A stretch of DNA of 64,000 bases from the NCBI GenBank assembly GCA_965203445.1, contig OZ241883.1, positions 832,001 through 896,000 of the forward strand, read 5' to 3'. Every line of letters begins with the position of its first letter. Position 1 is the first letter of the stretch. The notes beneath the pieces are model-generated. The model was not told the DNA's origin, did no database searches, and saw nothing but the letters and a program-made list of their open reading frames with translations. This document shows positions 1,505 to 59,233 of the stretch, in pieces. The translations under genes were made by a program, and so were the position numbers. This DNA comes from Candidatus Oxydemutator sp. (GTDB taxonomy: Bacteria > Pseudomonadota > Gammaproteobacteria > Poriferisulfidales > Oxydemutatoraceae).

Positions 1505-1507
1505 CCG

Positions 1508-2452: not shown

Positions 2453-2473
2453 ATCAACTGTGACGTCGGGTCT

Positions 2474-5306: not shown

Positions 5307-5316
5307 CCTTCCCATC

Positions 5317-5351: not shown

Positions 5352-5589
5352 TTTTCATTTTCTGCGGGGGCTTATATACAATGCCGCCCGCAATGGCGGA
5401 ACTTGCGACGCTGACTGGTGTCGTCACTGCGACCACGTACGGCGACCGAGCACGCTCTTGGCGCTGCGGCTGACCACGAAGGCGGCCAGGTTGCTTCCAG
5501 GCCAAATCTCTCCCAAAATATCAGGGCGTTCCATTTGCGTTCGGCGCTGGTCGTCATGCGCCTCCATACGGTTTGCACAACACACCGGC

Positions 5590-6790: not shown

Positions 6791-9700
6791 TCAGGGGGCC
6801 GGGAAGCAGAGCGCGCAGTCGGGAATGGAGAGGGCGCCGTTCTGTATGATACGGAATTGATCCGCCGAGAGAACGTCGCCGTCAAAGTCCACGTCGGCAT
6901 CAATGACGTAGGAACCCGCGGCATCGGGAACGGCGTAATGGACGCCGCCGATAGCCGTCAGGTTGTGGACGCGAATAAACGCCTCGTCGGCAGCGTTGAT
7001 CCTGCCGTCTCGGTTGACGTCGCCGGCATACATCACGAACTCACCATTCGGCAAGGCCCGCTGACGATCCAGGTACGCCTGCTCGGTCCTGAAGTCCGCG
7101 CAATAGGCCGCCGCGTCGTCGGCACAACGCGCCAGCGCGGCCGCGGACATCACCGACAGATGGTTGCGGTGGTGTATCAGCACGTATAAATCCGGCGCCC
7201 GGTCGTCTATCACCACGCCAAAACGCACGTCCCCGCCGCGTATGACCCGATCCACGCCGACGACGTCGCCGTTGCTCAAAAGCAACGCCGCCTGCTTGCC
7301 CAGCGAGGTCGAAGTGGTGGCCGCAGAAGCACCGGCACCGCCGGCCGTCGCCCGCAGCTCGACCAACACCCAATCCACTATCGGCGCGGACACCGTCGAC
7401 GGCACGCTCGCCGCAGCCGCGCTCCACGGCGACGACCGATACGGCTGGCTCGCCGGCAGGTAGCTCCTATACGTGGTCTTCATCGGACGCCCGATGCCGT
7501 ACGCACCCTGCAAATATGCGCCGACGCGTATCGTCGCCCCCACCACGTCTTCGTCACGCACGATCAACGTTACCGAGTCCGCGCTTACAATCGAATAGTA
7601 GCCGCTTACCTCGTGGCTCAACGTGACCACCTCGTCGTCCACCGTTGCGTCGCCCGCCACGGACACCGTGACCGATTGCGACGTACGCCAGTTCGACGTC
7701 GTGAAGGTCAGCGTAGAGGCCGACACGCTCACGTCCTCGTTGTCGCTCCTTACGGTAATCGTCACGTCGCCTTGCGGCGCCTCGGTCAGCACCATCCTGT
7801 AGGTCGCCGTGGCGCCCTCCGACAATTCCAGCCTGGTCGGGTTCACGAACACGTGGGCATAGCGCACCGCAACAACCACCGTGTCGGTGTCCGAATACTC
7901 CCCGCGCGCGTCCTGCACGCGCAACGAGAACACCAGGTCCGCATCGACGTTCCCCGGCAGTTGCAGCGGCGTCGTGAAGGTCGGCGCCACCGCGGACGCG
8001 TCGCTCAACGTGACTCCCGGGCCGCTGGTCTGGCTCCAGCTATACGTCAGATCCTCGTCCTCGGGGTCGGAACTGCGGCTGCCGTCCAGGAACACCAACA
8101 CACCTTTGTCCACCACCTGATCGTCCCCGGCATCCGCCGTCGGCGCGTCGTTCGCACCCGGACGCACCGTGACCACCACCGTGTTCGTCGTCTGACCGCT
8201 CAACTGCCGTTCCACGGGCGACGACAGTCCGCGCGTGTCCGACACCACCAGCACGAACGTCAGGGTCTCGCTACTCGCCAACTGCACTGGTGCCGTGAAC
8301 GTCGCGCTGCGCATCCCGGCGCCGTGCAGTGTCACCATACTGCCGCTGACCTGACGCCAGCCGTACGTCAGAACCTCTCTCTCCGGATCGCTGCTGCCGA
8401 CGCCGTCCAACGTTACCACGTCGCCCTCGTCCACTACCTGATCGGCGCCCGCGTCCGCCGTCGGCGCGTCGTTTTCGCCCGGACGCACCGTGATCACCAC
8501 CAGGTTCCTCGTCATGCCGTCAAACTGCGCTTCCACGGGCGACGACAGACCGCGCACGTCCGACACCACCAGCACGAACGCAAGGGTCTCGCTACTCGCC
8601 AACTGTAGCGGCGCCGTGAACGTCGCGCTGCGCATCCCGGCACCGCGCAACGTCACCTGGCTGCCGCTGATCTGACGCCAGCCATACGTCAGATCCTCTC
8701 TCTCCGGATCGCTGCTGCCGACACCGTCCAGCGTTACCACGTCGCCCTCGTCCACCACCTGATCGGCGCCCGCGTCCGCCGTCGGCGCGTCGTTCTCGCC
8801 CGGACGCACCGTGACCACCACCGTGTTCGTCGTCCTGTCGGCAAACCGCGCTTCCCGTGGCGATGACAAACCGCGCGTGTCCGACACCACCAGCACGAAC
8901 GAAAGGGTCTCACTGCTCGCCAACTGTAGCGGCGCCGTGAACGTCGCACTGCGCATCCCGGCACCGCGCAACGTCACCTGGCTGCCGCTGACCTGACGCC
9001 AACCATACGTCAGATCCTCTCTCTCCGGATCGCTGCTGCCTACGCCGTCCAGCGTTACCACGTCGCCCTCGTCCACCACCTGATCGGCGCCCGCGTCCGC
9101 CGTCGGCGCGTCGTTCTCGCCCGGCAACACCTCGACCGACACCTCGGCAGACGAACTCGCATTGCGCCGATCCGTCGCCGTCAGCCGGAATACCAGCGTC
9201 GCCGTCTCCGCCAACTGCACCGGCGCCGTGAACGTCGCCACCGACGACGTCGGCTCGCCCAGCCCCACGTCAATACCGCCAATCTGTTCCCATCTATACG
9301 ACAGACGGCCACCATCGGTGTCCGTCGCACTGCCGCGCAACGTGACCTCGGCACCTTCGGCAACCACTTGATCGGAACCGGCATCCACCATCGGCGGCGT
9401 GTTGACGCCCAACTCCACATAGACCACCAAGTCATCGGTCGTCGCGGCACCGCGCTCGTCCGTAACACGCAACGCAAACGCTATCTCCGTCGCCGCACTC
9501 AAACCCGTCGGCACCACAAAGCTCACAGTCCTCGACGACGCATCGCTCAACGTAACGCCCAGCACCTCCGCACCGCTGGTCTGACTCCACCGATACCTCA
9601 ACTCCTCGCCCTCAGGATCATAGGCGCTGCCGCGCAATACCACCACGTCGCCCTCGCCCGCAAGCAGATCATCGCCCGCGTCCACCACCGGCGCGTCGTT

Positions 9701-12700
9701 CGCTCCCGGTCGCACCGTGATCACCACCGTGTTCGTTGTCCGATCGCTCAACTGCCGTTCCACGGGCGACGACAAACCGCGCGTGTCCGTCGCCACCAGC
9801 ACGAACGTCAGGGTCTCGCTGCTCGCCAACTGCACCGGCGCCAGGAACGTCGTGCTGCGCGCCCCGGCGTCGCGCAACGACACCTGACTGCCGCTGATCT
9901 GACGCCAGCCATACACCAGCATCTCGTTCTCCGGATCGCTGCCATCGCCGGCCAGCGTCACCACGTCGCCCTCGTCCACCACCTGATCGGCACCCGCGTC
10001 CGCCGTCGGCGCGTCGTTCTCGCCCGGTCGCACCGTGACCACCACCGTGTTTGTCGTCATACCGGCATACTGCGCTTCCCTAGGCGACGCCAAGCCGCGC
10101 GTGTCCGACACCACCAGCACGAACGTCAGGGTCTCGCTACTCACCAACTGCACCGGCGCCGCGAACGTCGTGCGACGCGCTCCGGCCCCGTGCAACGTCA
10201 CCGTACTGCCGCTGACCTGACGCCAGCCATACACCAGCGACTCTCCCTCCGGATCCCTGCTGCCAACGCCGTCCAGCGCTACCACGTCGCCCTCGGACAC
10301 TATCTGGTCAGCGCCCGCGTTCGCCGTCGGCGCGTCGTTCACGCCGGCCTGCACCGTGATCACCACGACCACGGGGGCTGCATTACCGCCCCGATCATCG
10401 TTCACATACAACGTGAACTCCAAATCCTCGTCGTTGACCAACTGCGTCGGCGCCGTGAACGTCGTACGCCTGCTTTCGCCAAACCCCTCCAGATTCACAA
10501 AGTAAGACCTGAGCGGATTGCTGCCGGCTCCGGTTTGACTCCAGAAATACCTCAGCGCATCGCCTTCCGGATCGCGCGCGCTGCCGATCAGAACCACCAC
10601 GGCGCCCTCGGACACCACCTGATCAAGCCCGGCGTCCACCTCCGGCGCGTCGTTCGGGCCGGCGCGCACCGTGATCTCCACCGTGTTCGTCGTGTCATCA
10701 CCCGACTGCGCTTCCCTAGGCGACGACAAGCCGCGCACGTCCGACACCACCAGCACGAACGCAAGGGTCTCGTCACTCCTCAACTGCACCGGCGCCGCGA
10801 ACGTCGTCGTTACCGACAGCGCGTTCGTCAGCGTGACGCTCCTGCCGCCGATCTGACGCCAGCCATACCTCAGCATCTCTCTCTCCGGATCGCTGCTGCC
10901 GGTGCCGTCCAGCGTTACCACGTCGCCCTCGTCCACCACCTGATCGGCGCCCGCGTCCGCCATCGGCGCGTCGTTCTCGCCCGGTCGCACCGTGACCACC
11001 ACCGTGTTCGTCGTCCTGTCAGCATACTGCGCTTCCACGGGCGACGACAAACCGCGCGTGTCCGACACCACCAGCACGAACGTCAGGGTCTCGCTACTCG
11101 CCAACTGTACCGGCGCCGTGAACGTCGCGCTGCGCATCCCGGCGCCGCGCAACACCACCTGGCTGCCGCTGACCTGACGCCAGCCATACGTCAGATCCTC
11201 TCTCTCCGGATCGCTGCTGCCGACACCGTCCAGCGTTACCACGTCGCCCTCGTCCACCACCTGATCGGCGCCCGCGTCCGCCGTCGGCGCGTCGTTCTCG
11301 CCCGGTCGCACCGTGACCGCCACCAGGTTCCCCGTCATGCCGTCATACTGCGCTTCCACGGGCGACGACAGGCCGCGCGTATCCGACACCACCAGCACGA
11401 ACGCAAGGGTCTCGCTACTCGCCAACTGCACCGGCGCCGTGAACGTCGCGCTGCGCATCCCGGCGCCGCGCAACGTCACCTGGCTGCCGCTGACCTGACG
11501 CCAGCCATACGTCAGATCCTCTCTCTCCGGATCGCTGCTGCCGACACCATCCAGCGTTACCACGTCGCCCTCGTCCACCACCTGATCGGCGCCCGCGTCC
11601 GCCGTCGGCGCGTCGTTCTCGCCCGGGCGCACCGTGACCACCACCAAGTTCGACGTCCTGTCGGCATACTGCGCTTCCACGGGCGACGACAGACCGCGCG
11701 TGTCCGACACCACCAGCACGAACGCAAGAGTCTCGCTACTCACCAACTGTACCGGCGCCGTGAACGTCGCGCTGCGCATCCCGGCGCCGCGCAACGTCAC
11801 CTGGCTGCCGCTGACCTGACGCCAGCCATACGTCAGATCCTCTCTCTCCGGATCGCTGCTGCCTACGCCGTCCAGCGTTACCACCTCGCCCTCGTCCACC
11901 ACCTGATCGGCGCCCGCGTCCGCCACCGGCGCGTCGTTCTCGCCCGGTCGCACCGTGACCACCACCGTGTTCGTCGTCTGACCGCTCAACTGCCGTTCCA
12001 CGGGCGACGACAGACCGCGCGTGTCCGACACCACCAGCACGAACGCAAGAGTCTCGCTACTCGCCAACTGTAGCGGCGCCGTGAACGTCGCGCTGCGCAT
12101 CCCGGCGCCGTGCAACACCACCTGGCTGCCGCTGATCTGACGCCAGCCATACGTCAGATCCTCTCTCTCCGGATCGCTGCTGCCTACGCCGTCCAGCGTG
12201 ACCACGTCGCCCTCGTCCACCACCTGATCGGCGCCCGCGTCCGCCACCGGCGCGTCGTTCTCGCCCGCTCGCACCGTGACTACCGCCAGGTTCGTCGTCC
12301 TGCCGTCAAACTGCGCTTCCGCGGGCGACGACAGACCGCGCACGTCCGACACCACCAGCACGAACGCAAGGGTCTCGCTACTTACCAACTGCACCGGCGC
12401 CGTGAACGTCGCGCTGCGCATCCCGGCACCGCGCAACGTCACCCGGCTGCCGCTGATCTGACGCCAGCCATACGTCAGATCCTCTCTCTCCGGATCACTG
12501 CTACCAACGCCGTCCAGCGTCACCACGTCGCCCTCGTCCACCACCTGATCGGCGCCCGCGTCCGCCGTCGGCGCGTCGTTCTCGCCCGGCAACACCTCGA
12601 CCGACACCTCGGCAGACGAACTCGCATTGCGCCGGTCCGTCGCCGTCAGACGGAATACCAGCGTCGCCGTCTCCGCCAACTGCACCGGCGCCCTGAAACT

Positions 12701-15700
12701 CGCCCTATCCGTCGTCGGCTCGCCCAACCCTACGTCAATACCGCCCGTCTGTTCCCATCTATACGACAGACGGCCGCCATCGGTGTCCGTCGCACTGCCG
12801 CGCAACGTGACCTCCGCACCTTCATCCACCACTTGATCCGAACCGGCATCCACCATCGGCGGCGTGTTGACCCCCAACTCCACATAGACCACCAAATCAT
12901 CGGTCGTCGCCGCATCGCGCTCGTCCGTAACACGCAACGCAAACGCTATCTCCGTCGCCGAACTCAAACCCGTCGGTATCACAAAGCTCGTAATCCTCGA
13001 CGACGCATCGCTCAACGCAACTCCCAGCACCTCCGCACCGCTGGTCTGACTCCACCGATACCTCAACTCCTCGCCCTCAGGATCATAGGCGCTGCCGCGC
13101 AATACCACCACGTCGCCCTCGCCCGCAAGCAGATCATCGCCCGCGTCCACCACCGGCGCGTCGTTCGCGCCCGCGCGCACCGTGACCACCACCGTGTTCG
13201 TCGTCTGACCAGCATACTGCGCCTCCACGGGCGACGACAAACCGCGCACGTCCGACACCACCAGCACGAACGTCAGGGTCTCGTCGCTCACCAACTGCTC
13301 CGGCGCCACAAACGTCGTGCTGCGCGCTCCGGCGTCGTGCAACGACACCTGACTGCCGCTGACCTGACGCCAGCCATACACCAGCATCTCGTTCTCCGGA
13401 TCGCTGCTGCCTGCGCCGTCCAGCGTCACCACCGCGCCCTCGTCCACCATCTGATCGGCGCCCGCGTTCGCCGTCGGCGCGTCGTTCTCGCCCGGGCGCA
13501 CCGCGACCGACACCGTGGCCGTGCCCACCGCGTCGCGCTCGTCCGTTACCGTCAACTCGAACACCAGCGTCGCCGTCTCCGCCAACTGCACCGGCGCCGT
13601 GAACGTCGCGGTGGCCGTGGCGGTGGTCATGGCGCCTATCGTCGCTCCCGTCAGCGCAACTCGACCGCCGCCGACCTGACGCCAGCCATAGCTCAACTCC
13701 TCTCTCTCCGGATCGTCGCTGCCGTCGCCGTCCAGCGTTACCATCTCGCCCTCGCCCACCACCTGATCATCGCCCGCGTCCGCCAACGGCGCGTCGTTCT
13801 CGCCCGCGCGCACCGTGATCACCACCGTGTTCGTCGTCTGACCGCTCAACTGCCGCTCCCTCGGCGACGACAGTCCCCGCGTGTCCGTCACCACCAGCAC
13901 GAACGTCAGGGTCTCGCTATTCACCAGCTGCTCCGGCGCCACAAACGTCGTGCTGCGCGCCCCGGCGTCGTGCAACGACACCTGGCTGCCGTCGACCTGA
14001 CGCCAGCCATACGTCAGATCCTCTCTCTCTGGATCACTGCTGCCTGCGCCGTCCAGCGTTACCACCTCGCCCTCGTCCACCATCTGATCATCGCCCGCAT
14101 CCGCCGTCGGCGCATCGTTCTCGCCCGGTCGCACCGCGACCGACACCTCGGCAGACGAACTCGCATTGCGCCGGTCCGTCGCCGTCAGACGGAACACCAG
14201 CGTCGCCGTCTCCGCCAACTGCACCGGCGCCCTGAAACTCGCCCTATTCGTCGTCGGTTCGCCCAGCCCCACGTCAATACCGCCAATCTGTTCCCATCTA
14301 TACGACAGACGGCCACCCTCGGTGTCCGTCGCACTGCCGCGCAACGTGACCTCCGCACCTTCGTCCACCACTTGATCCGAACCGGCATCCACCACCGGCG
14401 GCGTGTTGACCCCCAACTCCACATAGACCACCAAATCATCGGTCGTCGCGGCACCGCGCTCGTCCGTAACACGCAACGCAAACGCTATCTCCGTCGCCGA
14501 ACTCAAACCCGTCGGTATCACAAAGCTCGTAATCCTCGACGACGCATCGCTCAACGCAACTCCCAGCACCTCCGCACCGCTGGTCTGACTCCACCGATAC
14601 CTCAACTCCTCGTCCTCAGGATCATAGGCGCTGCCGCGCAGCACCACCACGTCGCCCTCGCCAGCAAGCAGATTATCGCCCGCGTCCACCACCGGCGCGT
14701 CGTTCGCTCCCGCTCGCACTTCGACCACTACCGTGTCCGTGTCCGTCGCCCCGCGCGCGTCCGCCACCGTCAACTCGAACACCAGCGTCGCCGTCTCCAC
14801 CAACTGCTCCGGCGCCGTGAACGTCGTGGTGGTCACGGCGCCTATCGTCGCTCCCGTCAGCGTCACTCGACCGCCGCCGATCTGACGCCAGCCATACGTC
14901 AGATCCTCTCTCTCTGGATCACTGCTGCCATCGCCGTCCAGCGTTACCAGTCCGCCCTCGTCCACCACCTGATCATCACCCGCGTCCGCCACCGGCGCGT
15001 CGTTCTCGCCCGCGCGCACCGTCACCACCACCGTCGCCGTCGTCGAAACCGCACCACGCGTGTCCGTTACACGCAGCGCAAACTCCAATTCCTCATCCGA
15101 CACCAACTGCACCGGCGCCGTGAAACTCGCGGTTACCGACATCGCGTTCGTCAGCGTAACGCGCACGCCCCGGGTCTGACTCCAGACATACACCAGCGCT
15201 TCTTTCTCCGGATCGTTACTGGCGTCGCCGTCCAGTATCACCACCGCGCCCTCGTCCACCACCTGATCATCGCCCGCGTCCGCCACCGGCGCGTCGTTCG
15301 CGCCCGGGCGCACCGTGATCACCACCGTGTTCGTCGTCCGATCGCTCAACTGCCGCTCCGCAGGCGACGACAGTCCGCGCGTGTCCGTCGCCACCAGCAC
15401 GAACGTCAGGGTCTCGCTGCTCACCAACTGCACCGGCGCCACAAACGTCGTGCTGCGCGCCCCGGCGTCGTACAACGACACCTGACTGCCGCTGATCTGA
15501 CGCCAGCCATACACCAGCATCTCGTCCTCCGGATCGCTGCCCGCGCCGGCCAGCGTCACCACGTCGCCCTCGTCCACCACCTGATCGGCGCCCGCGTCCG
15601 CCACCGGCGCGTCATTCTCGCCCGGAACCACCTCGACCACCACCGTGGCCGTGCCCGTCGCGTCGCGCGCGTCCGTTACCGTCAACTCGAACACCAGCGT

Positions 15701-18700
15701 CGCCGTCTCCGCCAACTGCGTCGGCGCCATGAACGTCGCAGTGGTCCTGGAGCCTATCGTCGCTCCCGTCAGCGTCACTCGATCGCCGCCGATTTGACGC
15801 CAGCCATACCTCAACTCCTCTCTCTCCGGATCCCTGCTGGCTACGCCGTCCAGCGCCACCATCTCGCCCTCGTCCACCACCTGATTGGCACCCGCATCCG
15901 CCGTCGGCGCATCGTTCGCGCCCGGGCGCACCGTGATCACCACCGTGTTCGTCGTCTGATCACTCAACTGACGATCCCTCGGCGACGACAGTCCGCGCGT
16001 GTCCGTCGCCACCAGCACGAACGTCAGGGTCTCGCTGCTCACCAACTGCACCGGCGCTTTGAACGTCGTGCTGCGCGCCCCGGCGTCGTGCAACGACACC
16101 TGACTGCCGCTGATCTGACGCCAGCCATACACCAGCATCTCGTCCTCCGGATCGCTGCCCGCGCCGGCCAGCGTCACCACGTCGCCCTCGTCCACCACCT
16201 GATCATCGCCCGCGTCCGCCGTCGGCGCGTCGTTCTCGCCCGGAACCACCTCGACCGACACCGTGTCCGTGCCCGTCGCGTCGCGCGCGTCCGTTACCGT
16301 CAACTCGAACACCAGCGTCGCCGTCTCCGCCAACTGCGTCGGCGCCGTGAACGTCGCGGTTACCGACATCGCGTTCGTCAGCGTGACTCCCCTGCCGCCG
16401 ACCTGACGCCAGTCATACCTCAACTCCTCTCTCTCCGGATCCCTGCTGGCTACGCCGTCCAGCGTCACCATCCCGCCCTCGTCCACCACCTGATCATCAC
16501 CCGCGTCCGCTATCGGCGCATCGTTCGCGCCCGGACGCACCGTGATCACCACCGTGTTCGTCGTATCATCGCTCAACTGCCGCTCCGCAGGCGACGACAG
16601 ACCGCGCGTGTCCGTCGCCACCAGCACGAACGTCAGGGTCTCGCTGCTCACCAACTGCACCGGCGCTTGGAACGTCGTGCTGCGCGCCCCGGCGTCGTGC
16701 AACGACACCTGACTGCCGCTGATCTGACGCCAGCCATACACCAGCACCTCGTCCTCCGGATCGCTGCCAACCCCGTCCAGCGTCACCACCTCGCCCTCGT
16801 CCACCACCTGGTCGGCGCCCGCGTCCGCCGTCGGCGCGTCGTTCTCGCCCGCGCGCACCGTCACCACCACCGTCGCCGTCGTCGAACCCGCACCACGCGT
16901 GTCCGTTACACGCAGCGCAAACTCCAACTCCTCATCCGACACCAACTGCGACGGCGCCGTGAAACTCGCGGTTACCGACTGCGCGTTCGTCAGCGCAACG
17001 CGCACACCCCGGGTCTGACTCCAGACATACGCAAGCGCTTCTTTCTCCGGATCGCTGCTGGCGCCGCCGTCCAGTATCACCACCGCGCCCTCGGACACCA
17101 CCTGCGCAACACCGGCGTCCGCCGTCGGCGCGTCGTTCGCCCCCGCTCGCACCGTGATCATCACCGTGTTCGTCGCGTTCACCCCGCTCACGCTCCGACC
17201 CCGTATCCGAGAACGCGTCGAAGACTCGCCGCGCTCGTCCGTCGCCACCAGCAGAAACTCCAATACCTCGTCTTCCACCAGCTGCGACGGCGCCGTGAAC
17301 GTCGCCACCGCCGACTGCGCGCTCGTCAGTGTGACCCTCCTGCCCACGGTCTGGCTCCAGCGATACCTCAACGTCTCCCTCTCCAGATCGCTGCCGACGC
17401 CGCTCAAAACCACCACCGCGCTCTCCGATACGACCTGATCCTCCCCGACCCGCACCGTCGGCGCATCGTTCTCGCCCGGCACCACCTCGACCACCACCGT
17501 GGCCGTGCCCACCGCGTCGCGCGCGTCCGTTACCGTCAACTCGAACACCAGCGTCGCCGTCTCCGCCAACTGCTCCGGCGCCGTGAACGTCGTGGTTACC
17601 GACATCGCGTTCGTCAGCGTGACCCCCCTGCCGCCGACCTGACGCCAGCCATACCTCAACTCCTCTCTCTCCGGATCCCTGCTGGCTACGCCGTCCAGCG
17701 TCACCATCTCGCCCTCGTCCACCACCTGATTGGCGCCCGCGTCCGCCAACGGTGCGTCGTTCTCGCCCGGGCGCACCGTGATCACCACCGTATTCGTCGT
17801 ATCATCGCTCAACTGCCGCTCCGCAGGCGACGACAACCCCCGCGTGTCCGTCGCCACCAGCACGAACGTCAGGGTCTCGCTGCTCGCCAACTGCACCGGC
17901 GCCAGGAACGTCGTGCTGCGCGCCCCGGCGTCGTGCAACGACACCTGACTGCCGCTGATCTGGCGCCAGCCATACACCAGCATCTCGTTCTCCGGATCGC
18001 TGCCCGCGCCGGCCAGCGTCACCACCTCGCCCTCGTCCACCACTTGGTCGGCGCCCGCGTCCGCCACCGGCGCGTCGTTCTCGCCCGGGCGCACCGTGAT
18101 CACCACCGTGTTCGTCGTCCGATCGCTCAACTGCCGTCCCACGGGCGACGACAAACCCCGCGTGTCCGTCGCCACCAGCACGAACGTCAGGGTCTCGCTG
18201 CTCACCAACTGCACCGGCGCCACAAACGTCGTGCTGCGCGCCCCGGCGTCGTGCAACGACACCTGACTGCCGCTGATCTGACGCCAGCCATACACCAGCA
18301 TCTCGTCCTCCGGATCGCTGCCCGCGCCGGCCAGCGTCACCACGTCGCCCTCGTCCACCACCTGATCGGCGCCCGCGTCCGCCGTCGGCGCGTCGTTCGG
18401 CCCCGGCAACACCTCGACCGTCACCTCGTCCGACGAACTCGCATTGCGTACGTCCGTCACCGTAAGCCTGAACACCAGCGTCGCCGTCTCCGCCAACTGC
18501 ACCGGCGCCGTGAAACTCGTGTTATCCGTCGTCGGCTCGCCCAACCCCACGTCGCGACCGCCGGTCTGTTCCCACCTATACGCCAAAACACCGCCCTCGG
18601 TGTCTCTCGCTCCGCCGCTCAATCGTACCGTTTCCCCTTCGCCAACCACTTGGTCAAGGCCCGCCTCCGCCACCGGCGGCGTGTTGGCTCCCAACTCCAC

Positions 18701-45700: not shown

Positions 45701-48700
45701 CCTGCCGCCGATCTGACGCCAGTCATACCCCAGCATCTCGGCTTCCTCGTCCCTGCCGGCGCCGCTCAAAACCACCACGGCATTCTCGTCCACCACCTGA
45801 TCATCGCCCGCGTCCGCTACCGGCGCGTCGTTCTCGCCCGGACGCACCGTGATCACCACCGTGTTCGTCGTCTGATCGCTCAACTGACGTTCCACGGGAG
45901 ACGACAGGCCGCGCGTGTCCGTCGCCACCAGCACGAACGTCAGGGTCTCGCTGCTCGCCAACTGCACCGGCGCCAGGAACGTCGTGCTGCGCGCCGTGGC
46001 GTCGTGCAACGACACCTGACTTCCGCTGATCTGACGCCAGCCATACACCAACATCTCGTTCTCCGGATCGCTGCCGGTGCCGGCCAGCGTCACCACGTCG
46101 CCCTCGTCCACTACCTGATCGGCGCCCGCGTCCGCTACCGGCGCGTCGTTCTCGCCCGGGCGTACCGTGATCACCACCGTGTTCGTCGTCCGATCGCTCA
46201 ACTGCCGCTCTCTCGGCGACGACAACCCGCGCGTGTCCGTCGCCACCAGCACGAACGTCAGGGTCTCGCTGCTCACCAACTGCACCGGCGCCAGGAACGT
46301 CGTGCTGCGCGCCGTGGCGTCGTGCAACGACACCTGACTGCCGCTGATCTGACGCCAGCCATACACTAGATCCTCTTCCTCCGGATCGCTGCCGGTGCCG
46401 GCCAGCGTCACCAACTGGCCCTCGTCCACCACCTGATCGGCGCCCGCGTCCGCCGTCGGCGCGTCGTTCGCGCCCGCGCGCACCGTAATCAGCACCGTGT
46501 TCGTCGAATCCTCGCTCCGACTCGAGGACAGGCCGCGCGTGTCGCTCACCACCAGGAAAAACTCCAGCTCCTCGTCGCTCGCCAACTGCACCGGCGCCGT
46601 GAACATCGGATTCGCCACGGAAGCGTCCGTCAGCTCCACCATACTGCCGCTGACCTGACGCCAGCCATACACTAGATTCTCTCTCTCAGGATCCCTGCCA
46701 AAACCGCGCAGCGTTACCACGTCGCCCTCGTCCACCACCTGATCGGCGCCCGCGTCCGCTACCGGCGCGTCGTTCGGGCCGGCCTGCACCGTGACCACCA
46801 CCGACGCGGGGGCTGCATTAGCGCCCCGCTCATCGTTCACATACAACGTGAACTCCAAATCCTCATCATTGATCAACTGCGACGGCGCCGTGAACGTCGT
46901 ACGCCTGCTTTCGCCAAATCCCTCCAGATCCACAGGGTAGACCCTGACGGACGGATTGCTGCCGCCTCCGGTTTGAATCCAGCGATACCTCAGCGCATCG
47001 CCTTCCGGATCGCGCGCGCTGCCGATCAGAACCACCACGGCGCCCTCGGACACCACCTGGTCAAGACCGACGTACGCCGTCGGCGCGTCGTTCGGGCCGG
47101 CGCGCACCGTGATCACCACCGTCGCCGTCGGCGAGCGTTCGCCTTGTGCGTCCCGCACCCGCAATGAAAACTCCAATGTTTCGTCCGACACCAACTGCAA
47201 CGGCGCCGTGAAACTCGCGGTTACCGACAGCACGCCCGTCAGCGTAACGCTCCTGCCGGCGGTCTGGCTCCACTGATACGTCAGCAACTCTTCCTCCGGA
47301 TCGCGGCTGGCGCCGCCGTCCAGAATCACCACCGCACCCTCGGACACCACCTGCGCAAGACCCGCGTCCGCCTCCGGCGCGTCGTTCTCGCCCGCGCGCA
47401 CCGTCACCACCACCGACGCGGTCGAAACCGCACCCCGCGTGTCCGTTACCCGCAGCACAAACCCCAGTTCCTCGTCCGACAACAACTGCATCGGCGCCGT
47501 GAAACTCGCGGTTACCGACACCGCGTTCGTCAGCGTAACGCGCACGCCCCGGGTCTGACTCCAGCCATACAACAGCACCTCCTCCTCCGGGTCGCTGCTG
47601 CCGGTGCCATCCAGTATCACCACCGCACCCTCGGACACCACCTGCGCAAGACCCGCGTCCGCCGTCGGCGCGTCGTTCGGGCCGGCGCGCACCGTCACCA
47701 CCACCGTGTTCGTCGTGATCTCTCCACCCACGCTCTGGTTCCGTATCCGCGAGCGCGTCGAAGACTCGCCACGCTCGTCCGTCGCCACCAACAGAAACTC
47801 CAATACCTCGTCGTCCACCAACTGCGACGGCGCCGCGAACGTCGTAGTCAACGACTGCGCATCCGTCAGCGTGACCCTCCTGCCCACGGTCTGGCTCCAG
47901 CGATACCGCAACGTCTCGTTCTCGGCGTCGCTGCCGCTGCCGGTCAACACCACCACCGCGCTCTCCGACACGCTCTGATCCTCCCCGACTTGCACCGTCG
48001 GCGCGTCGTTCTCGCCGGCGCGCACCTCGACCACCACCACGTCCGCGTCCGTCGCGTCGCGCGCGTCCGTTACCGTCAACTCGAACACCAGCGTCGCCGT
48101 CGCCACCAACTGCATCGGCGCCGTGAACGTCGCGGTGCTCGCGACGCCTATCGTCGCTCCCGTCAGCGTCACCCGACCGCCGCTGATCTGACGCCAGGCG
48201 TACCGCAACTCCTCTCTCTCCGGATCGGTGCTGCCGTCGCCGTTCAGCGTCACCAACTCTCCCTCCTGCACGACCTGGTTTCCGCCCGCGTCCGCCTCCG
48301 GCGCGTCGTTCGCGCCGGCCTGCACCGTAATCACCACGGTATTGGTCGTGTTACCGGTCCGTTCGGGGGTCGGATCCGAACCCAATCCGTGCACGTCGGC
48401 AACCACCAGCGTGAACTCCAACTGCGCGTCGGCCTGCAACTGCGTCGGCGCACGGAAACTCGGCGTCGCCGACGACGCATCACTCAAACTCACGCGCGCC
48501 ACGTCCACGCCGCCCGTCTGACGCCACTGATACGTCAGCCGATGATCCTGCGGATCGCTGCTCCCCGTGCCGTCCAGGATGACCACCGCACCCTCGGACA
48601 CCACCTGGTCAGGGCCGGCGTTCGCCGTCGGCGTCGTGTTGGCGCCCGCCTCCACCGTAATGACCACGGTGGCCGTCGTCGCCAGATCGCGCGCGTCCGT

Positions 48701-51700
48701 CGCCCTCAATGCAAATCCCAGCACCGCCGCCTCCGACAAACCCGACGGCGCCACGAAGCTTGCGTTGATAGACGTTGCGCCCGTCAACGTAACCAACGGC
48801 TGCCCGCTGGTCTGGCTCCATTGAAGACTCAACCTCTCCCCCTCCAGATCAAACGCGCTGCCGCGCAGGGTTACCGTCTGGCCTTCGCTGACGAACCGGT
48901 CGTCGCCCGCGTCCACCACCGGCGCGTCGTTCGGGCCGGCCTGCACCGTGATCACCACCGACACGGGGGCCGCACGACCGCCCCGATCGTCTTCCACATA
49001 CAACGCGAATTCCAAATCCTCGTCATTGACCAACTGCGGCGGCGCCGTGAACGTCGTACGCCTGCTTTCGCCAAATCCCTCCAGATTCACAAAGTAAGAC
49101 CTGAGCGGATTGCTGCCGGCTCCGGTTTGAAACCAGCGATACCTCAGCGCATCGCCTTCCAGATCGCGCGCGCTGCCGATCAGAACCACCACGGCGCCCT
49201 CGGACACGACCTGAGCAGGCACGGCGTCCACCTCCGGCGCGTCGTTCGGACCGGCGCGCACCGTGATCACCACCGTGTTCGTCGTGTCATCACCCGACTG
49301 CGCTTCCCTAGGCGACGACAACCCCCGCGTATCCGTCACCACCAGCACGAACGAAAGGGTCTCATTACTTCTCAACTGCACTGGTGCCGCGAACGTCGTC
49401 GTTACCGACAGCGCGTTCGTCAGCGTGACGCTCCTGCCGCCGATCTGACGCCAGCCATACACCAGCACCTCGTCCTCCGGATCGCTGCTGCCGGTGCCGT
49501 CCAGCGTTACCACGTCGCCCTCGTCCACCACCTGATCGGCGCCCGCGTCCGCTACCGGCGCGTCGTTCGCACCGGCACGCACCTCGACCGACACCGTATC
49601 CGTGCCCGCCGCGTCGCGCACGTCCGTCACCGTCAGCCGGAACACCAGCGTCGCCGTCTCCACCAACTGCAACGGTGCCGTGAACGTCGCCGCCGCCGTC
49701 ATCGGAGTGCCCAACCCCGCGTCGCGCCCGCCGATCTGTTCCCACCTGTACGCCAACGCGCCGCCCTCGGTGTCGCTCGCACTGCCGCGCAACGCGACCT
49801 CGGCCCCTTCGTCGACCACTTGATTGGGGCCCGCCTCCACCACCGGCGGCGTGTTCGCGCCCAACTCCACCGTGACCGCAACCGTGGCGGTCGCCGCCAG
49901 ATCGCGCTCGTCCACAACCCTTAACGCAAACCCCAGCACCGTCGCCTCCGCCAGACCCGTCGGCGCCGTGAACGTCGCCACCGACGACGTCGCACCGGAC
50001 AACGCCACCGTCGGTTGCCCGCTGATCTGGCTCCATTGGTACGTCAGCATCTCCCTCTCCGGATCGTTGCTGGCGCTGCCGTCCAACGTCACCATCGCGC
50101 GCTCGGTTACCGTCTGGTCGGACCCGGCGTCCGCCGTCGGCGCGTCGTTCGGACCCGGCCTTACCCGAACCAGCACCCGGTCCGACGAACTCGCGTTGCG
50201 CACGTCGGTTACCGTCAGCGTGAATTCCAACGTCGCCGTCGTCGCCAGCTGTGGCGGCGCCGTGAAGGTCGCGGTCGCCGTCGTCGCACCGCCCAACGCC
50301 ACCCGCGCCACGTCGAGACCGCCGGTTTGTCGCCAGCTGTACATCAGGCGTCCACCTTCCGAATCGTCGGCGACGCCGCGCAGCGTCACCGTCTCTCCTT
50401 CGGTCGTCACTTGATCCAGTCCGGCGTCCACCGTCGGCGGCGTGTTGGCGCCCAATTCCACCGTGACGATCACCGTGTCGGTCGTCGCCATATTGCGCTC
50501 ATCCGTCGCTCTCAATGCAAACCCCAACGTCGTTGCCGCCGCCAGACCCCTCGGCGCCGTGAAGGTCGCGGTCGCCGACGTCGCATCGCGCAACGTCACC
50601 AACGGCTGGCCGCTGGTCTGGCTCCACTGGTACCTGAGATTCTCTCCTTCGGGATCGTTGGCGGCGCCGCGCAGCGTCACCAACTCGCCCTCGCCTACGG
50701 TCAGGTCCATACCCGCGTTCACCTCCGGCGCGTCGTTCGGGCCGGCGCGCACCGTGATCACCACCGTGTTCGTCGAAGCCTCGTCGCGTTGGGGGCTTGC
50801 CACGGACGGCAAGCCGCGCGTATCGCTCACTATCAGGAAAAACTCCAACTCCTGATCCTGCACCAGCTGCGTCGGCGCCGCAAACGTCGTGACCGCCGCG
50901 CTATCGTCCGCCAGCACCACGTCCCTGCCGGCGATCCGCGTCCAGTGATACGTCAACGACTCGTTTTCCGGATCGCTGCTTCCGGTGCCGTCCAACGTCA
51001 CCACTTCGCCCTCGGCCACCGTCTGGTCGGGGCCCGCGTTGGCCGTCGGCGCATCGTTCTGGCCGGGTGTCACCGTGATCATCAGCGCGTCGGAGGGGCT
51101 CAGCAGGCCCCCCGAATCACGCACATTCAGCCAGAACACGAGAAGGACGGTCTCCGCCAGTTGGGTCGGCGCACGAAAAGTCGGACGCGCCGTCGCTGCA
51201 CCCGTCAGGGTAACGTTCGGTCCTCGGACTTGTCGCCACTGATAGGATACCGGCTGCCGCGTATCGCTATCTCTGCTGGCGCTGCCGTCGAGCGTCACTA
51301 CGGCGCCCTCGGTCACGGTCTGGTCCAGTCCGGCATCTGCTATCGGGCTCTGGTTCGGGCGTTGCAGCCCGACGTCGAAATTGGCGTAGCGCAAAGCCGG
51401 ATATTGCAAATCACTGCCGAAATCCCAGGGGGTGTCCACGGCGCCGTCGTTGTCCACGTCCACGTTCCAGGTGGTGTAGATACCGGTGTAGGTAGTGGGC
51501 GACTGCAACTCGCGGGTCGTTCCCGGCGTGCCACCGGCGCTGCTTTGTTGGCGGCTTCGATCTGTATCCCAGTAACTGTTGGCCACGCGGGCGGTACTCA
51601 AACCCTCACCCACCAAGCCGCCGCTCTGGCCAGTACTCAACGTGTAACTAGCGGTCACTACTCCATGGTTAAGGCCCACCAGGCCGCCACTGAGGCCGTA

Positions 51701-54700
51701 ATATGAGCCAACGCCGGAGGCAACTCTCCCTATGTTGATCGCTGCGTAACTGGCGACTATCGTTCCGGCGTTATAACCCACCAGGCCGCCAATTTGGGAT
51801 CTGCCAAAAATGGAAGCTCGAATCGAACCGATTTGAGGTAACTGTTGGGTTGTCAGTTCCCTCATCGCATAACAGGCTGCTATCGTTCCGAAGTTCCGGC
51901 CCGCCAGCGCACCGATGCTATTTCTTCCAGCTACTCTGACGTCAGGCAGCCCCACCCCCACTATCATGCCGCCGCTGCCTACTTGGCCGAACAAGCCAGC
52001 GTCGTCGCCCGCATTCCCCAAGGTATAGTCTGGCCTGCCCTGGTCGTTGCTGTCGGCCAAAAGGTTGATCGCAAGGCTCCTGATAGCGTAACCATTGCCC
52101 TGGAACGTCGCGTTGAACGAATCGTTGCGGTTGCCGATGGGGTTCCAGCCAGAACGCGGACTCACGTCGGAAGACAGTTCATAGCCGAGGCAACGGCCAT
52201 CGCGACACCCCATATCCGCTCGTCCGTCGGGGAAAGCCTCGTGATAACTCACGACAGCGGAACCGACCGGAACGCCGTCGCCGTCCAGATCCCAGCGAAT
52301 AGCGTTCAGCTGACTCTCGTTTCCGACTTCGATGAGATGATCGCCGTCCAGGTCGTAGCTCCTGTTGCGCTCCGATACCGCGATAGTGATCGTCAGAACG
52401 GCCGTATTGCCGTCCTCGTCGGTGACGCTGATGCGATAAGTGTCGGGACCGGATTTTGTCGTCGGCGTGCCTATGATGGTGCCGATTTGCGCCGTGGTGG
52501 GCTGGTCGTGGCGCAGTCCCTGCGACAGCGAGGGCAGATTCGAGTACGTCACCCGGCCGAAACCACCCGACGCCTGCGGCAGATTAAAGGAGACCGGTTC
52601 ACCCACCGTGAAAAGCCTCTGGATAGACGCGGGCGTGAAAAACGGCGGCTGGGGTCGCCGGATTACAAAGGGAACGAGCAGCGTCGCGCTGTCCGTCTCC
52701 GATCTGTCGGCGTCCTCATCGTGTGCGATAAACTCCAATACGTAGGTGCCCGGATTGTTTCCTATCTGAAAAGTTACACTCCGTAACCGAGGACTGGCAG
52801 GATCAGGTATTTGCAGTTGCAAGGTTTGCAGGAAAGAAGCCGTTTCTTCGGAAACCCCGTAGCTAAGGTTGCCGTCACCGCCCGACGCCCGCGGCAGCTC
52901 AATATAAAGGCCGAACACGAGATCGGGCCTCTGGCCTACTAAGATGGTCCGCGTAGTCTGTCTCGCATCGGCGGCAAACGTCGGATGCACGTTGCCGAGC
53001 ACGTTCGTGCGCGGCCCCCTGGTGACGGTATGCGCGCCAAGATCGAGATTGGCGTCGGCGCCGCCCGTCGCGGAGCGAATGGCGGCTGCGGCGGGCGTCG
53101 TCAGCGCCCGCGCCGATATATCAATGCCGTCATCGTCCCGATCCGGCGTGCGCACGCGGTATTCAAACCGCAGCGAACCATCCGCCTCCAGCCCGGCAAA
53201 GCTCGCGCGCGCGTCGGTGGTGCCGATGGTCAGCGCCAGTTGCGGCGTGCCCGTCACCGCCACCGGCCTGTCGAAGCCGACGTACGCGGTGATGACGTCG
53301 CGCCAGCGAAAAGCACCGCCGGCGCGCGTGGTGCCGTCAAGCCTGACGCTGTTCACCACCGGGGGCAAGGCGATACGGCCATCCACTCTGTGGCGCGTGC
53401 TGTTGACCACGGCGTGGACGCCGAGATCGAGATTCACCGGATTGCCGCTCTCCGACACGACGCTCTCCCCGGCACCCAACTTGATCGCGTCCGCGGCAAT
53501 GGAGAGACCGCCGACGTCGCTCCAGGTGGTCTGTACGACGGCGCGGAAAATCAACAGGGTATTGGTGTCGGTAGTGACCTGAGGGAAGCGCACGCTGGCG
53601 GGGTTCTCCAACCCGACTTCCAGCTCGGGCGAACCGTTGACGGAGATCGGATTGTCAAAGCGCACCTGCGCCTCTATCGTGTCGCCGGCGGTGTAGGTGT
53701 CGGTGCGCCCCTGGCGCCCGCCGAGGGACACGTCAACCACGACCGGCACGACTGTCACCGCCAATTCGAAAGTCAGCGTGTCGGTGTCCCCGTCTTCGTC
53801 GCTTACGGTCAGCACGTAGGTCGTCGTGGAATGCCCCGCGATCGGCGTGCCGCCGATGGCGGTCGGCGCGGTGTGGGTCACTCCCGCCGGCAGCGGCGGG
53901 GATATGCGATAGCTCAGCGCACCGTCGCCGCCCGACGCCTGCGGCAAAAACGTCGGAGGGTTGAACACGTTCAGCGAGAGAGTGAGCGATGGCGCCTCGG
54001 CACCGCCGAACGACGGAAACAAGTCCCGCACCACCGTGACCGCATAGGTCGTCACATACGCCGGGTCCTGCGCCGTCACCTCTGCGGTAATGACGGTTTC
54101 GCCGGCGCCGAGATCAACCTGATGGCCGAGCATCGTCGAATCCGCGTCCGCCGGCTCGATGCGCACGGTGGCGGCGGCGTTCGCTTTCGTTGCCGTCACC
54201 GTCAGGCGCATCAAGCCGCTGGCAACGTTGGCACGGTACCTGGTGACGCCGGAATCAAACGCCGGGGTCAGCGTGCCGTCCGAGACGACCAGCGCCCCCA
54301 GGGTCGCGTCGTCGGACAGTACCGGCGGCGGGGCCGGAGAAAGTGCGTGCGCGCGCAACGTCGGATATTGGCTCGACGTGCCGAAATTCCACGGATCGTC
54401 GGCAACGTCGTCTCCATCCAGGTCCACGTTCCAGTTGGCGTAGATGCCGGTGTAGGTAGTGGGGCCCTGCAACCCGGCGGGGCTTTGGCCCGTTCCCGCG
54501 CAGAAGCTGCCTACCGTGTTTGCGTTGCTCCAGTAGCTGTCGGTTACCGTTCCACCCCACCTCAAAGCCGGATGCGCAACCGTCAAACCACAACTGAAAG
54601 AAGCAAATCCCCCTTCGGGATTACCCGTCGCATAGCTCGCGATTATCGTTCCTCTGTCATTCACGTTGGTGCCGACCAGGCCGCCGACCGATCGGCGGGC

Positions 54701-57700
54701 TTCTACCGATGCCGTCGCATAGCTCGCGATTATCGTCCCCTCATTGCGGCCCACCAGGCCACCCACTTCCGTAAAGGCGTTTGCTATATGGCTATAAACC
54801 GCTTGGGTCTCCACTGTGCCTCTGTTTCCGCTTCTGAACCACGTGCCGCCCGTTGCATAACAAGCTGCAATTGTCCCGTCGTTTCGGCCCGCCAGACCAC
54901 CGACGTAGTTTCTCCCCACTACCAGAACGTTACGCAAACCGAGTCCGACAATCGTGCCGCTGCTGCCGACGTAACCAAACAGACCGACGTAATCGTTATC
55001 GAATCGGTAAATAGACAGCCTGTTATTTGCCGTGCCACCACCCAGGTTGGTACCGCTGATTTCATAGCTGTTGCCGTCGAAGGTGGCGTTGAACGGAGTG
55101 TTGGCATCGCCGATCGGGTCCCACTGAGAACTACCAACGTTCAAGTTGGATCCCAGCTCATACCCGCGACAACCGCTGGAAGGACACCCCATGCCCTGCC
55201 GCCTCGTGGGAAAAGCCGAATCGTAGGAAGCGGCGTTCGTCGGCATGCCGTCGCCGTCCAGATCATGGCGAATGGCGTTCATCTGCGCCACGTTGCGCAC
55301 CTCTATCAGACCATCGTTATCGAGGTCGTAATCGGTACCGCTGGGGCCGGTGCCGGGATCAACGGGCGGCGCCTCGCGCGGCTGCTCGGCGGGGCGGAAA
55401 TTGCGATACTGCAACACCGGATAAAAGCCGTTCGCAATGCTCCACGGGGAGTCGGCGGCGTTGTCGCCGTCCACGTCCGCGCTCTGCCAGGAAGAATACA
55501 GAGAGAGCGCGGAAGACAGCAGATCGGCAGTCGAGGCGGCCAGACCGCCGCCGCCACTGACCGACCAGCCGCTGGTTTGCCGATCCCATCCGCTGTCTAT
55601 CACGCGGGAGCCTCTGAAACTATGACCTACCAGGCCACCGAAGCTACCCGTACCCCCGGGTATGACGGCCCCTCTCGCGTAACTGTAGCGGATCGTGCCG
55701 GCGCTGCGCCCCACCAAGCCGCCGACCCGTCCGACGCCGGTGACCGAAGCGGCCGCGTAACTCGCCACCACGGTGCCGCCGCCGGCCAGCTCACCGACCA
55801 GACCGCCGGCGTCGCGCCCCGAGACCGCGCCGGTCACGTAGCAGGCGCCGATCCGGCCCGCGCTTCGGCCCGCAATACCGCCGACCCGGTGGCCGCGCGA
55901 CGTCACGTCGGCGTTCGCCAGACCGACTCCCAGCACCTCGCCGCCGCCACCGATGCTGCCGAACAGACCGGCGTAGTTATCGGCGCTGTTGATGTACAGG
56001 TTGGATATGACGCGGCCATTGCCGTGGAAAGTGGCGGTGAAGTCGTTATTGAGGCCGCCGATGGGTCGCCAACTGACGCGCCCGGTCGTCGGGAACGACA
56101 AATCCCGGGCCAGTTCGTAGCCGCTGCAACGGCCGCCGCAATCCACCTGCGGATCCAATAACGGGAAACCGGCGCCGTAGGCGGCGGCGTCAGCCCCGGC
56201 GTCGACCCGCCCATTGCCGTTCAAATCCCAGCGGATTGCGTCCAGTTGCCGAACGTCGTTGATCTCGATGAGGCCGTTGCCGTTGGCATCGTAGTCGAGC
56301 ATTCTGACGTCCAAATAAAAAGTCGCCGTCGCGGTGCGGTTCGCGCGGTCCGTCGCCGTGTAGGTATAGGGGCCGTAGATTCCGGCCGCGACGGCGTTGC
56401 CCGGCGCGTCGGCCCGCCCGGAAAGGACACGCGTCGCCGGGTCGAGCGAGAAGTTGCCCGGCAACGACGGCGACACCGTGTAACGCAGCGGCGCGAATCC
56501 GCCCGCGGCCGGCGGCAGCGTCATCTGGAAAGCCACCCGCCGTCGCAGGAAAATATAGCCGGGGGTCGTCGAATGGGCGTTGGAAATCGTCGCCTGCGGG
56601 AACGCCAGCGGCGCCGATGCCCGCGCGAACTGCGCCGAAATCTGCGCGCCCGCGCGCTCGTGCTTCGACGCCGGAAACTGGCTCGCGGTGCCGAAATCCC
56701 ACGGATCGTCGGCGACGCCGTCTCCATCCACGTCCACGTTCCAGGCGGCGTAAATCGCAACGCCGGCGTTGCCGGCGGTGTCGTCGTAACTGGTGGGCGT
56801 CTGCAAGTTGCCGATGGTCCTGGAGGTGCCGCCGTTGCTGTGGGAAAAACCGCTCAATACGGCGTTGTAGTAACTGGCGGCGACCGTGCACCCGCCGGAG
56901 CAGTCTGCATTACGGCCTATCAAGGCGCCGTGCTGCTGAACGTCGCCGGCCGGCCGAGTCGAGCGCACGCGGCCAATCGCGTAGCTGGCGATTACGGCCG
57001 CCGGTGCTCCCTGCGCGCCGACCAGGCCGCCAACCACGCTGCCCGTTACCGAGACCGAGGCATAAGAGGCTACGACGTCTCCTTGCTGCCAGCCCACCAG
57101 ACCACCCGTGCCCCATGCGCCAACCACCTGACCATCCGCAACGTAGCTGGCGGTGATCGTCGAACCCGTATGCATACTGCCCGCCAGGGCGCCGGCGTTA
57201 CTGCCGCCCGACCTTATATTCACGTCGAGCAGGCCGAGCGCCCTGATCACGCCGCCGCTTCTCAACACGCCGAACAAACCGCGATCACTACGCGCGGCGT
57301 CGCCGCTGTCAATGAACAAATGGGAGATGGTGTGCCCGTTGCCGTCGAAGACCGCGGCGAAATTGATGGGTTGCCAACCCGCGCCTCCGTTCCAATAGGC
57401 GCCGTTGGAATCGGCCGCCGTTATCTCGCCGTCGCCATCGGTGTCGAAGTCCAGGTCGGCCAGCAATTCGTAGCCCTCGCAGACGGGCCAGCAGTCGGTG
57501 CTCGGAAAAGCGAGGACGTAGGCGGAGGTGTTGGCCTCGGGCACGCCGTCGCCGTTCTCGTCCCAGCGCATCGCGTGCAACTGCTCGAGCGTTCGCACTT
57601 CTATCAATCGCGAGTGCGAACCTTCGAGTATTGTCACCGTAAGCCGGTCCGGGTTTATCGTCACCCTCTCGGGAGCAGGCGCCCCCGCAACAAAACCCAA

Positions 57701-59233: not shown

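Follow-up and report, generated by a model that had tools for sequence, protein, structure and literature searches.

We analysed a 64,000-nucleotide stretch of the gammaproteobacterium Candidatus Oxydemutator sp. (contig OZ241883.1, positions 832,001 to 896,000; hereafter the window), in which one minus-strand open reading frame (ORF) encodes a giant protein of 17,480 amino acids (aa). We found that this protein ends in a module whose predicted fold resembles the X-module-plus-dockerin (XDoc) tail of clostridial scaffoldins, and this tail is the probable anchor of the giant protein. A preliminary description of the same DNA had reported no recognisable anchor signal, and had suggested the C-terminal domain as a possible retention device. 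The domain scan that it called for was run here at both ends of the protein and corrects the first statement, since the Pfam model Dockerin_1 matches inside the 250-aa module above its cut-off (25.6 bits against a gathering score of 22.9). The second is supported, the domain now appearing as XDoc-like and dockerin-bearing. The parts of the giant gene are as follows.

6791..59233, minus strand: giant ORF from ATG 59233 to stop 6791, 17,480 aa
59144..59233, minus strand: signal peptide, aa 1-30, with a predicted signal peptidase I site AYA↓Q (heuristic call)
51356..59143, minus strand: head, aa 31-2626, from Pfam and domain scans
7856..51355, minus strand: stalk, aa 2627-17126, 142 K319L-like PKD (Ig-like) units of 96-112 aa
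7544..7855, minus strand: Ig/Calx-like spacer unit, aa 17127-17230, with a weak fn3_6 match only (Calx-like label by eye)
6794..7543, minus strand: XDoc-like module, aa 17231-17480, predicted transthyretin-like beta-sandwich plus dockerin, with a CxxC-bearing tail
7502..7543, minus strand: beta-strand 1 of the module, found by itself at the end of 33 of 102 giant relatives
6836..7027, minus strand: dockerin with two calcium loops of the F-hand type, a canonical one at aa 17405-17416 and one with Leu at position 9 at aa 17447-17458

The C-terminal module is predicted to fold like clostridial XDoc

At the ligand positions 1, 3, 5, 9 and 12, the first dockerin loop reads D, N, D, N, D and the second D, D, D, L, D, with one deviation. 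D186 and D217 of the module are invariant over 61 aligned rows, and the modelled module would bind Ca2+. A single-sequence fold of the tail reached a predicted local distance difference test score (pLDDT) of 33 and was not used; an AlphaFold model from a 90-sequence alignment gave a pLDDT of 90.7 and a predicted template modelling score of 0.90. When this model was searched with Foldseek, ranks 1-10 all went to clostridial entries for cohesin-XDoc or scaffoldins (E 8e-5 to 2.4e-3), and the entry after them had an E value of 0.14. Alignment to XDoc chains with VIA-align gave Z-scores of 9.1-9.7 over 147-157 residues at a root-mean-square deviation of 3.7-4.4 Å, and the next entry reached 4.8. 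A structure search independent of Foldseek returned XDoc at Z 9.6 and 9.3, with the next entry at 4.4. A sequence search of the PDB with the tail found weak dockerin matches only (best E 0.004). By its predicted fold, with X-module and dockerin both present, the tail is an XDoc-like, dockerin-bearing module.

The closest known module is the type II XDoc of Clostridium thermocellum CipA/ScaA and CipB and of Acetivibrio cellulolyticus ScaA (PDB 2b59, 5k39, 5g5d, 4wi0). Passages of PMC5141474 describe clostridial XDoc as tethering scaffoldins to cell-surface cohesins and, as in the giant protein, as a sandwich and a two-loop dockerin in tandem at the C-terminus of a large protein with a signal peptide. 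CipB is, like the giant protein, a repeat protein without cohesins. The module of the giant protein differs from clostridial XDoc in its diderm host, its length (250 compared to ~160 aa) and a cargo without cohesin or CBM3. The giant protein does not itself look like a cellulosomal scaffoldin: no Cohesin or CBM match was found in the scanned parts, and the 142 units are all PKD-type. By this analogy, the best reading is that it would work like a cellulosomal XDoc-tethered protein.

Signals of the usual adhesin export routes were not found

We examined both ends of the protein and the flanking genes for known secretion routes. Aa 7-25 are the most hydrophobic 19-mer of the entire protein, with two arginines at the N-terminus and AYA↓Q following, in agreement with the signal peptide proposed earlier; the heuristic behind this call was positive in 0.06% of 3,300 internal control windows. 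We rejected twin-arginine (Tat) export, which the TRR start might suggest, because of the size of the protein and because the FLK-type residues of the usual rule are missing. The motifs GGxGxD, LPxTG, PEP-CTERM and GlyGly occur 0 times each in the giant protein, and neither a C-terminal transmembrane (TM) segment nor a TM-plus-basic sorting tail was found. Pfam and NCBIfam scans covered aa 1-3400, aa 17020-17480 and 10 flank ORFs, the mid-stalk being the same PKD unit throughout. In the two protein regions they matched no model for an autotransporter barrel, two-partner secretion (TPS), the C-terminal domain (CTD) of type IX secretion system (T9SS) cargo, or LapA retention. Por_Secre_tail and CHU_C were absent at the C-terminus, and a custom T9SS CTD profile had no match in the window. 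Among the 10 scanned ORFs of the 6.8-kb and 4.8-kb flanks, there were no genes for a type I secretion system (T1SS), TpsB or a type II secretion system (T2SS). What had been said earlier about missing RTX, LPxTG, PEP-CTERM, barrel and TM-tail features, and about flanks free of T1SS and TpsB, thus holds.

These results set the giant protein apart from several known classes. It is not a T1SS adhesin of the RTX/BAP kind, since it has a signal peptide, no RTX and no retention module. It is not a type V substrate (autotransporter or TpsA), no such feature being found at either end or in the flanks, nor does it carry the signals of T9SS cargo or of sortase, exosortase, rhombosortase or myxosortase cargo. 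T9SS is also unlikely because the host is a gammaproteobacterium, a class in which this system is not expected from its established range. The flank genes agree with this class: UbiA passes a proteobacterial cut-off, and the best plasmid-collection matches of UbiA and DprA are in Gammaproteobacteria. The T1SS adhesins LapA, SiiE and MpIBP share with the giant protein a long tandem Ig-like acidic extender that projects adhesive domains. They have no Sec peptide and are exported C-terminus first, and in LapA and MpIBP an N-terminal module provides retention; the giant protein showed none of these T1SS and retention features.

No sequence signal marks out T2SS substrates. Export by this route, raised earlier as a possibility, is plausible, on the grounds of exclusion, of cysteines confined to head and tail, and of the likeness of the stalk to PKD regions of rhombosortase and myxosortase cargo. 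The PKD regions of the models for GlyGly-CTERM and MYXO-CTERM T2SS cargo (NF038111, NF038112) match stalk units, and passages of bioRxiv 10.1101/2023.06.07.544157 state that both signals need T2SS to reach the surface. The giant protein differs from this cargo in having no TM-plus-basic tail, and its whole-protein scores lie far under the cut-offs. A further comparison is offered by the dockerin-type giants of Omnitrophota, which are also giant and dockerin-bearing, with a proposed attachment role and T2SS-like export genes suggested in parts of bioRxiv 10.1101/2023.11.21.568195. As described there, these carry numerous dockerins internally, are anchored by C-terminal TM segments and lie next to secretion loci, whereas the window giant has a single terminal XDoc-like module and no adjacent secretion system.

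The module caps unrelated secreted proteins in many lineages

We next characterized the module family. There were 5,519 module representatives at E<=1e-3, and the best 150 of them were examined. The module was C-terminal in 156 of 168 protein matches and N-terminal or internal in the other 12. The locus figures refer to the loci listed, so that there are at least 76 loci with 114 module ORFs; in 108 of these ORFs the module is C-terminal. Its cargo is unrelated from protein to protein and includes S8 and M12 proteases, LRR, FG-GAP and GLUG proteins (25 proteins scanned). None of the 114 module ORFs ends in a T9SS type A CTD, though they look secreted. Module-tailed genes stand in tandem arrays of up to 5-6 per locus. 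The tail is best explained as a portable anchor common to many secreted proteins of the lineage. In three proteins (P0164, P0165 and P0166), Pfam Cohesin domains and the module lie within one chain, as in adaptor scaffoldins.

Dockerin_1 recovers 14 of 61 module members at E<=0.01, and neither Pfam nor NCBIfam has a dedicated whole-module model. The module thus labels thousands of secreted proteins that curated libraries have overlooked. It was absent from the plasmid and phage collections searched, and in the literature, mostly open-access, we found no description of a 220-250-aa module of this kind or of the strand-only tail described below. Of the 76 listed loci, 73 belong to Bacteroidota, Chlorobiota, Ignavibacteria or Calditrichota, one to a deltaproteobacterium and one to an acidobacterium. 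Their modules are 29-41% identical to the window module, and none of these loci is from its own clade. In a quick, unrooted module tree without bootstrap, which gives no direction of transfer, the two module copies of the window and 47 other proteins form a separate clade (49 rows; SH-aLRT 100), with several module paralogues per long contig.

The second copy in the window belongs to a neighbouring gene.

61381..63423, plus strand: secreted protein of 680 aa, with the nearest paralogous module directly after the signal peptide

The two modules are 56% identical, and their DNA is 66% identical over 762 nt. The rest of the neighbour is a Cys-rich C-terminal domain that bears GxSxG and has no annotation or Pfam match; it may be an alpha/beta-hydrolase. 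A near-identical protein (P0001) occurs in another record.

Cohesin-like genes adjoin module genes in distant relatives

To characterize the surroundings of module genes, we scanned the co-oriented downstream ORFs of at least 100 aa, which are present in 47 of the 76 listed loci (all 47 scanned). Many consist of a signal peptide, a ~170-aa beta-sandwich and a T9SS type A CTD. A cohesin-like domain was found in 12/16 T9SS-CTD ORFs directly after a module gene, compared to 2/49 others (leave-one-out, p 4e-8). With non-seed rows only, the figures were 3/5 and 0/47, and two of the three are close relatives. Pfam Cohesin matches 3 of 13 partner domains, below cut-off. In the Atlas, Cohesin-bearing clusters came out at 0.94 with a share of 13-18% and with recognition just below threshold, and the partner-domain profile had no sequence match among solved cohesins (best E 0.28). 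Such cohesin-like, CTD-bearing downstream genes occur in Ignavibacteria, Calditrichota and Chitinophagaceae, and one locus (L051) has two module-partner pairs in tandem. Small cohesin-like genes with a T9SS CTD adjoin module genes downstream at L067:3598-4488, L048:7642-9683, L075:10593-11819, L051:10709-16070 and elsewhere.

A co-fold of one Bacteroidota pair (L067) scored 0.42, compared to 0.02 for the best control, and lends weak support. Its contacts agree to at least 96% and the partner has a pLDDT of at least 85. The mark it reached was also reached by 116/157 solved and 2/215 mismatched pairs; at scores up to 0.60, there are only 18 solved pairs and both mismatches. The score may be explicable by likeness to solved cohesin-XDoc complexes, possibly remembered by the predictor.

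One 189-aa protein (P0070) appeared by eye to combine a signal peptide, a cohesin-like start and the second half of the module. It was rejected as evidence; its N-terminal piece found no relatives and gave an independent E value of 1 on the partner profile. The protein looks like a deletion fusion.

The pairing principle is not new: for two diderms, Ca. Stygibacter and Chlorobium (Cag_2038/2037), comparable arrangements of dockerin and cohesin have already been put forward (parts of PMC8542988 and bioRxiv 10.64898/2026.03.19.712371). In the former (Cloacimonadota), passages of PMC8542988 present a cellulosome-like complex, deduced from metagenome-assembled genomes, of signal-peptide enzymes with C-terminal dockerins and a cohesin protein with a CTD. 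This is the logic of the module and cohesin-CTD pairs in the Bacteroidota-group loci. It differs in having one large multi-cohesin scaffoldin rather than single-cohesin neighbours, in not being proteobacterial and in lacking a giant stalk. In Chlorobium chlorochromatii, a Gram-negative symbiont, Cag_2038 has an Ig-repeat stalk (18 BIg) and a C-terminal dockerin proposed to bind the cohesin of a neighbouring gene product (Cag_2037), according to sections of bioRxiv 10.64898/2026.03.19.712371. The likeness to the giant protein is one of architecture (Ig stalk plus dockerin). Cag_2038 is cast there as the holder of a T1SS RTX protein, and the giant protein differs in its 142 repeats, its Sec peptide and the absence of a neighbouring cohesin.

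A docking model for the giant protein

We propose a model, in which we place middling confidence, that leads from Sec export to a tethered adhesin on the cell surface. The predicted signal peptide would bring the giant protein to the periplasm, where its domains would fold one by one and disulfides would form in head and tail. A putative T2SS encoded elsewhere would then carry the folded chain, like beads on a string, across the outer membrane. The predicted XDoc-like tail would bind Ca2+ and, in a calcium-dependent manner, dock non-covalently on a cohesin-like surface receptor, also encoded elsewhere. The 142 acidic PKD units would act as a ~0.5-0.6 µm spacer that holds the putatively adhesive GLUG/Calx-beta head out toward other cells or host matrix. 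If true, this extends the cohesin-XDoc tethering principle of the cellulosome to a half-micrometre adhesin in a proteobacterium, and implies a Sec-dependent route able to move a 1.8-MDa chain across two membranes. Cultured module carriers exist, e.g. Flavisolibacter longurius (L038), so that both pairing and export can be put to direct test.

Several observations weigh against this model. The structural identity of the module to clostridial XDoc is only 15-21%, and the module has ~90 extra residues. The 64-kb window holds no cohesin-like ORF, the cognate type being seen only beside distant relatives, and no secretion gene. Only ~12 of the 114 module genes have a cohesin-CTD gene directly downstream. 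For the enrichment given above, seeds were chosen by position; an iteration blind to position, begun from a single seed, came to a halt at 5 members and gave 3/16 compared to 2/49 (p 0.09). All partner evidence comes from distant relatives, mostly in T9SS-type lineages, and the window module lies in a separate clade. The nearest paralogue has its module at the N-terminus, which misfits a strictly terminal signal. Finally, a 1.8-MDa substrate would be far larger than any T2SS substrate that we know of.

Strand-only tails and alternative readings of the module

We compared the C-termini of 102 giants that share the head, found in a search allowing 5,500-17,500 aa. The terminal slot holds a TM helix in 7, the full module in 3 and the first strand of the module alone in 33. 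That TM anchor, module and strand appear to occupy this slot interchangeably speaks for the module acting as an anchor. The strand-only motif consists of 14 residues matching the first strand of the module; it scored 8.2-32.1 on a position-specific scoring matrix, compared to at most 4.8 among 20,400 internal background windows. The stop codon follows one residue past the motif in 29/33. An AxA↓Q-type signal peptide is present in 30/33, compared to 0.06% of controls. The 33 giants lie on contigs of 17 distinct lengths, with up to 5 paralogues per contig (among P0177-P0246), and fall into 6 upstream-domain groups, although 28 of them share one group. Nine giants (P0197, P0198, P0206, P0208, P0215, P0220, P0239, P0245 and P0249) share another unnamed C-terminus, in which an Ig-like strand is followed by a terminal motif containing GWR; this may be one more undescribed sorting tail.

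The strand-only end may be vestigial or may serve as a donor strand. Type V pili assemble by strand exchange, in which a transthyretin-like acceptor is completed by the C-terminal strand of another subunit. An alternative to docking is accordingly that the module, or its first strand by itself, labels cargo for a Sec-dependent sorting route not described so far, by donor-strand exchange or by being read by an export machine. The sharp motif scores, the adjacent stop codons, the spread over contigs and upstream groups and the shared signal peptides all favour this, as do the absence of T9SS type A CTDs from module ORFs and a weak match of the beta-sandwich to Bacteroides pilin-type chains (Z 2.9-4.2). 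These Z-scores, however, lie in the noise range, and the concentration of 28/33 in one upstream group could reflect few truncation events. The strands are of the 'FLEG' type in 33/33 and of the 'LQGA' type in the window's clade, which sets these giants apart from the system of the window. Protein sequences yielded no acceptor, and the window protein keeps the whole module. We consider this alternative unlikely, although the strand-only tail is a small, sharp hypothesis for a new sorting signal. Docking and strand sorting could also belong together. The tail would then mark an uncatalogued, widespread Gram-negative sorting or anchoring system: CTD-less cargo of the Bacteroidota group would dock on, or ride with, a cohesin-CTD partner. 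The system would have been rewired to another exporter in T9SS-less proteobacterial symbionts, and shrunk in related giants to a C-terminal donor strand, a 14-residue signal acting by strand complementation. We put this forward as a doubtful generalization.

A second alternative is that the protein is released, or that its tail binds ligands other than cohesins. The tail would then be a Ca2+-binding cap or would stick to polysaccharide, dockerins or host matrix, with a role in the extracellular matrix. The window without a cohesin, the lack of an adjacent cohesin gene for most module genes of the listed loci, and the N-terminal or internal modules in 12/168 protein matches and in the neighbour at 61381..63423 are consistent with this. 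The strong terminal bias, the position of the module in an anchor slot and the cohesin-CTD neighbours in relatives argue against it, and we regard it as rather improbable.

It is very unlikely that the giant protein is instead a lipoprotein anchored at its N-terminus, cleaved before Cys20, with the tail as its distal end. Cys20 is the sole Cys before aa 316 and satisfies a broad, PROSITE-type lipoprotein pattern, but it fails the strict lipobox, and hydrophobic residues run past it (mean Kyte-Doolittle value 1.72) to AYA↓Q. A lipobox was found in 0/19 close relatives and in 0/30 strand-only giants with an h-region, in which AxA↓Q occurs in 14 and 30, respectively.

The giant gene is real and its stalk probably expanded by duplication

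One uninterrupted frame without internal stops runs from 59233 to 6791 in the ORF analysis of the window, which bears out the length first reported; a GTG start upstream of the ATG, at 59275, would give 17,494 aa. The remaining five frames of the region contain 21-853 stops, and the third-position GC content of the gene (0.83) is near that of the flank genes dprA (0.86) and ubiA (0.88). On these two grounds, the giant ORF is a real, host-adapted gene. Long plus-strand ORFs (up to 5,042 aa) were rejected as genes and are antisense shadows of the minus-strand frame. The mature protein has a mass of ~1.82 MDa and an isoelectric point of 4.1. Passages of PMC11573180 note that huge proteins reaching about 20,000 aa can carry signal peptides, so the combination of this size with a Sec peptide is rare yet not unprecedented.

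PF22352 (K319L-like PKD) matches aa 2620-3400 in 7 stretches above cut-off (362.8 bits), and a stalk unit is similar to PDB 6nz0_Z (E 1e-12). The units have a mean pairwise identity of 59%, with 15% Asp+Glu and no Cys; 20 of the 24 Cys of the protein lie in aa 1-2626. At ~4 nm per Ig-like or PKD domain, 142 units give a calculated stalk length of ~0.57 µm, so that the earlier estimate of ~0.5 µm was reasonable. A higher-order repeat of 6 units spans stalk units 20-52, and units 79-104 reappear as units 105-132 in a block duplication of 26-28 units. The best explanation of these patterns is that the stalk grew by recent intragenic duplication.

The 17,480-aa length rests on one assembly. That repeat misassembly has inflated a protein several thousand residues shorter is highly improbable: near-identical blocks (96-100%), the large block duplication, the longest relative of 7,904 aa and the absence of the window's own protein from the 102 matches could suggest it, but only 2 of 10,011 unit pairs are DNA-identical, the longest exact DNA repeat is 578 nt with only 6 reaching 300 nt, and the duplicated blocks differ, as artefactual copies would not. 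The ratio of nonsynonymous to synonymous substitution among these copies is 0.53-0.55, which, with their divergence, argues for genuine expansion under purifying selection.

The head contains Ig-like, Calx-beta and GLUG domains

The head is built of the following domains.

aa 34-128, 891-979, 1737-1827 and 2197-2290: He_PIG Ig domains, with a weak one near 2111-2176
aa 129-165 (37 aa; 58739..58849, minus strand): collapsed GLUG-unit remnant, start and end kept, middle gone
aa 171-537: three Calx-beta domains
aa 540-860, 980-1280, 1300-1630 and 2291-2620: four GLUG-motif units of 300-340 aa with DxDxDG loops
aa 1654-1736: one cadherin-like sandwich
aa 1830-2082: two unnamed repeats of ~127 aa each

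The GLUG units are 36-45% identical to unit 3. The remnant is 62% identical over 26 aa to the end of this unit, and its middle was presumably lost by deletion. Two head segments (58819-59125 and 52339-52645) are 73% identical in DNA over 307 nt. Together with the collapsed unit, this likeness suggests that head modules have been gained and lost through recombination. Only one head relative, Ca. Poriferisocius, along with general background, hints at a sponge-symbiont setting.

Other genes of the window

The remaining features of the window are as follows.

4095-5336, minus strand: AAA_14/DUF4143 ATPase
5587-6711, plus strand: dprA, convergent with the giant gene; terminator-like hairpin at 6672-6690
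59874-61359, plus strand: SIMPL (DUF541)-like gene (below cut-off) and ubiA, divergent from the giant gene
63606-63998, minus strand: TnpB (IS200/IS605-type), low-GC, 3' end only, running off the window

Scans found no Rfam or tRNA features, and there were no informative repeats at the ends of the giant gene. Promoter and terminator scans were at or near chance level, except for the plus-strand hairpin at 6672-6690. At the start of the window, a low-GC island (93-3823, GC 0.49-0.60) carries an MT-A70 methyltransferase, an N6/N4 DNA methylase and an HNH endonuclease that weakly matches phosphorothioate-dependent restriction enzymes. It also holds a convergent gene for a fusion protein of RpoA-CTD and sigma region 4, and is probably a restriction or defence cassette.

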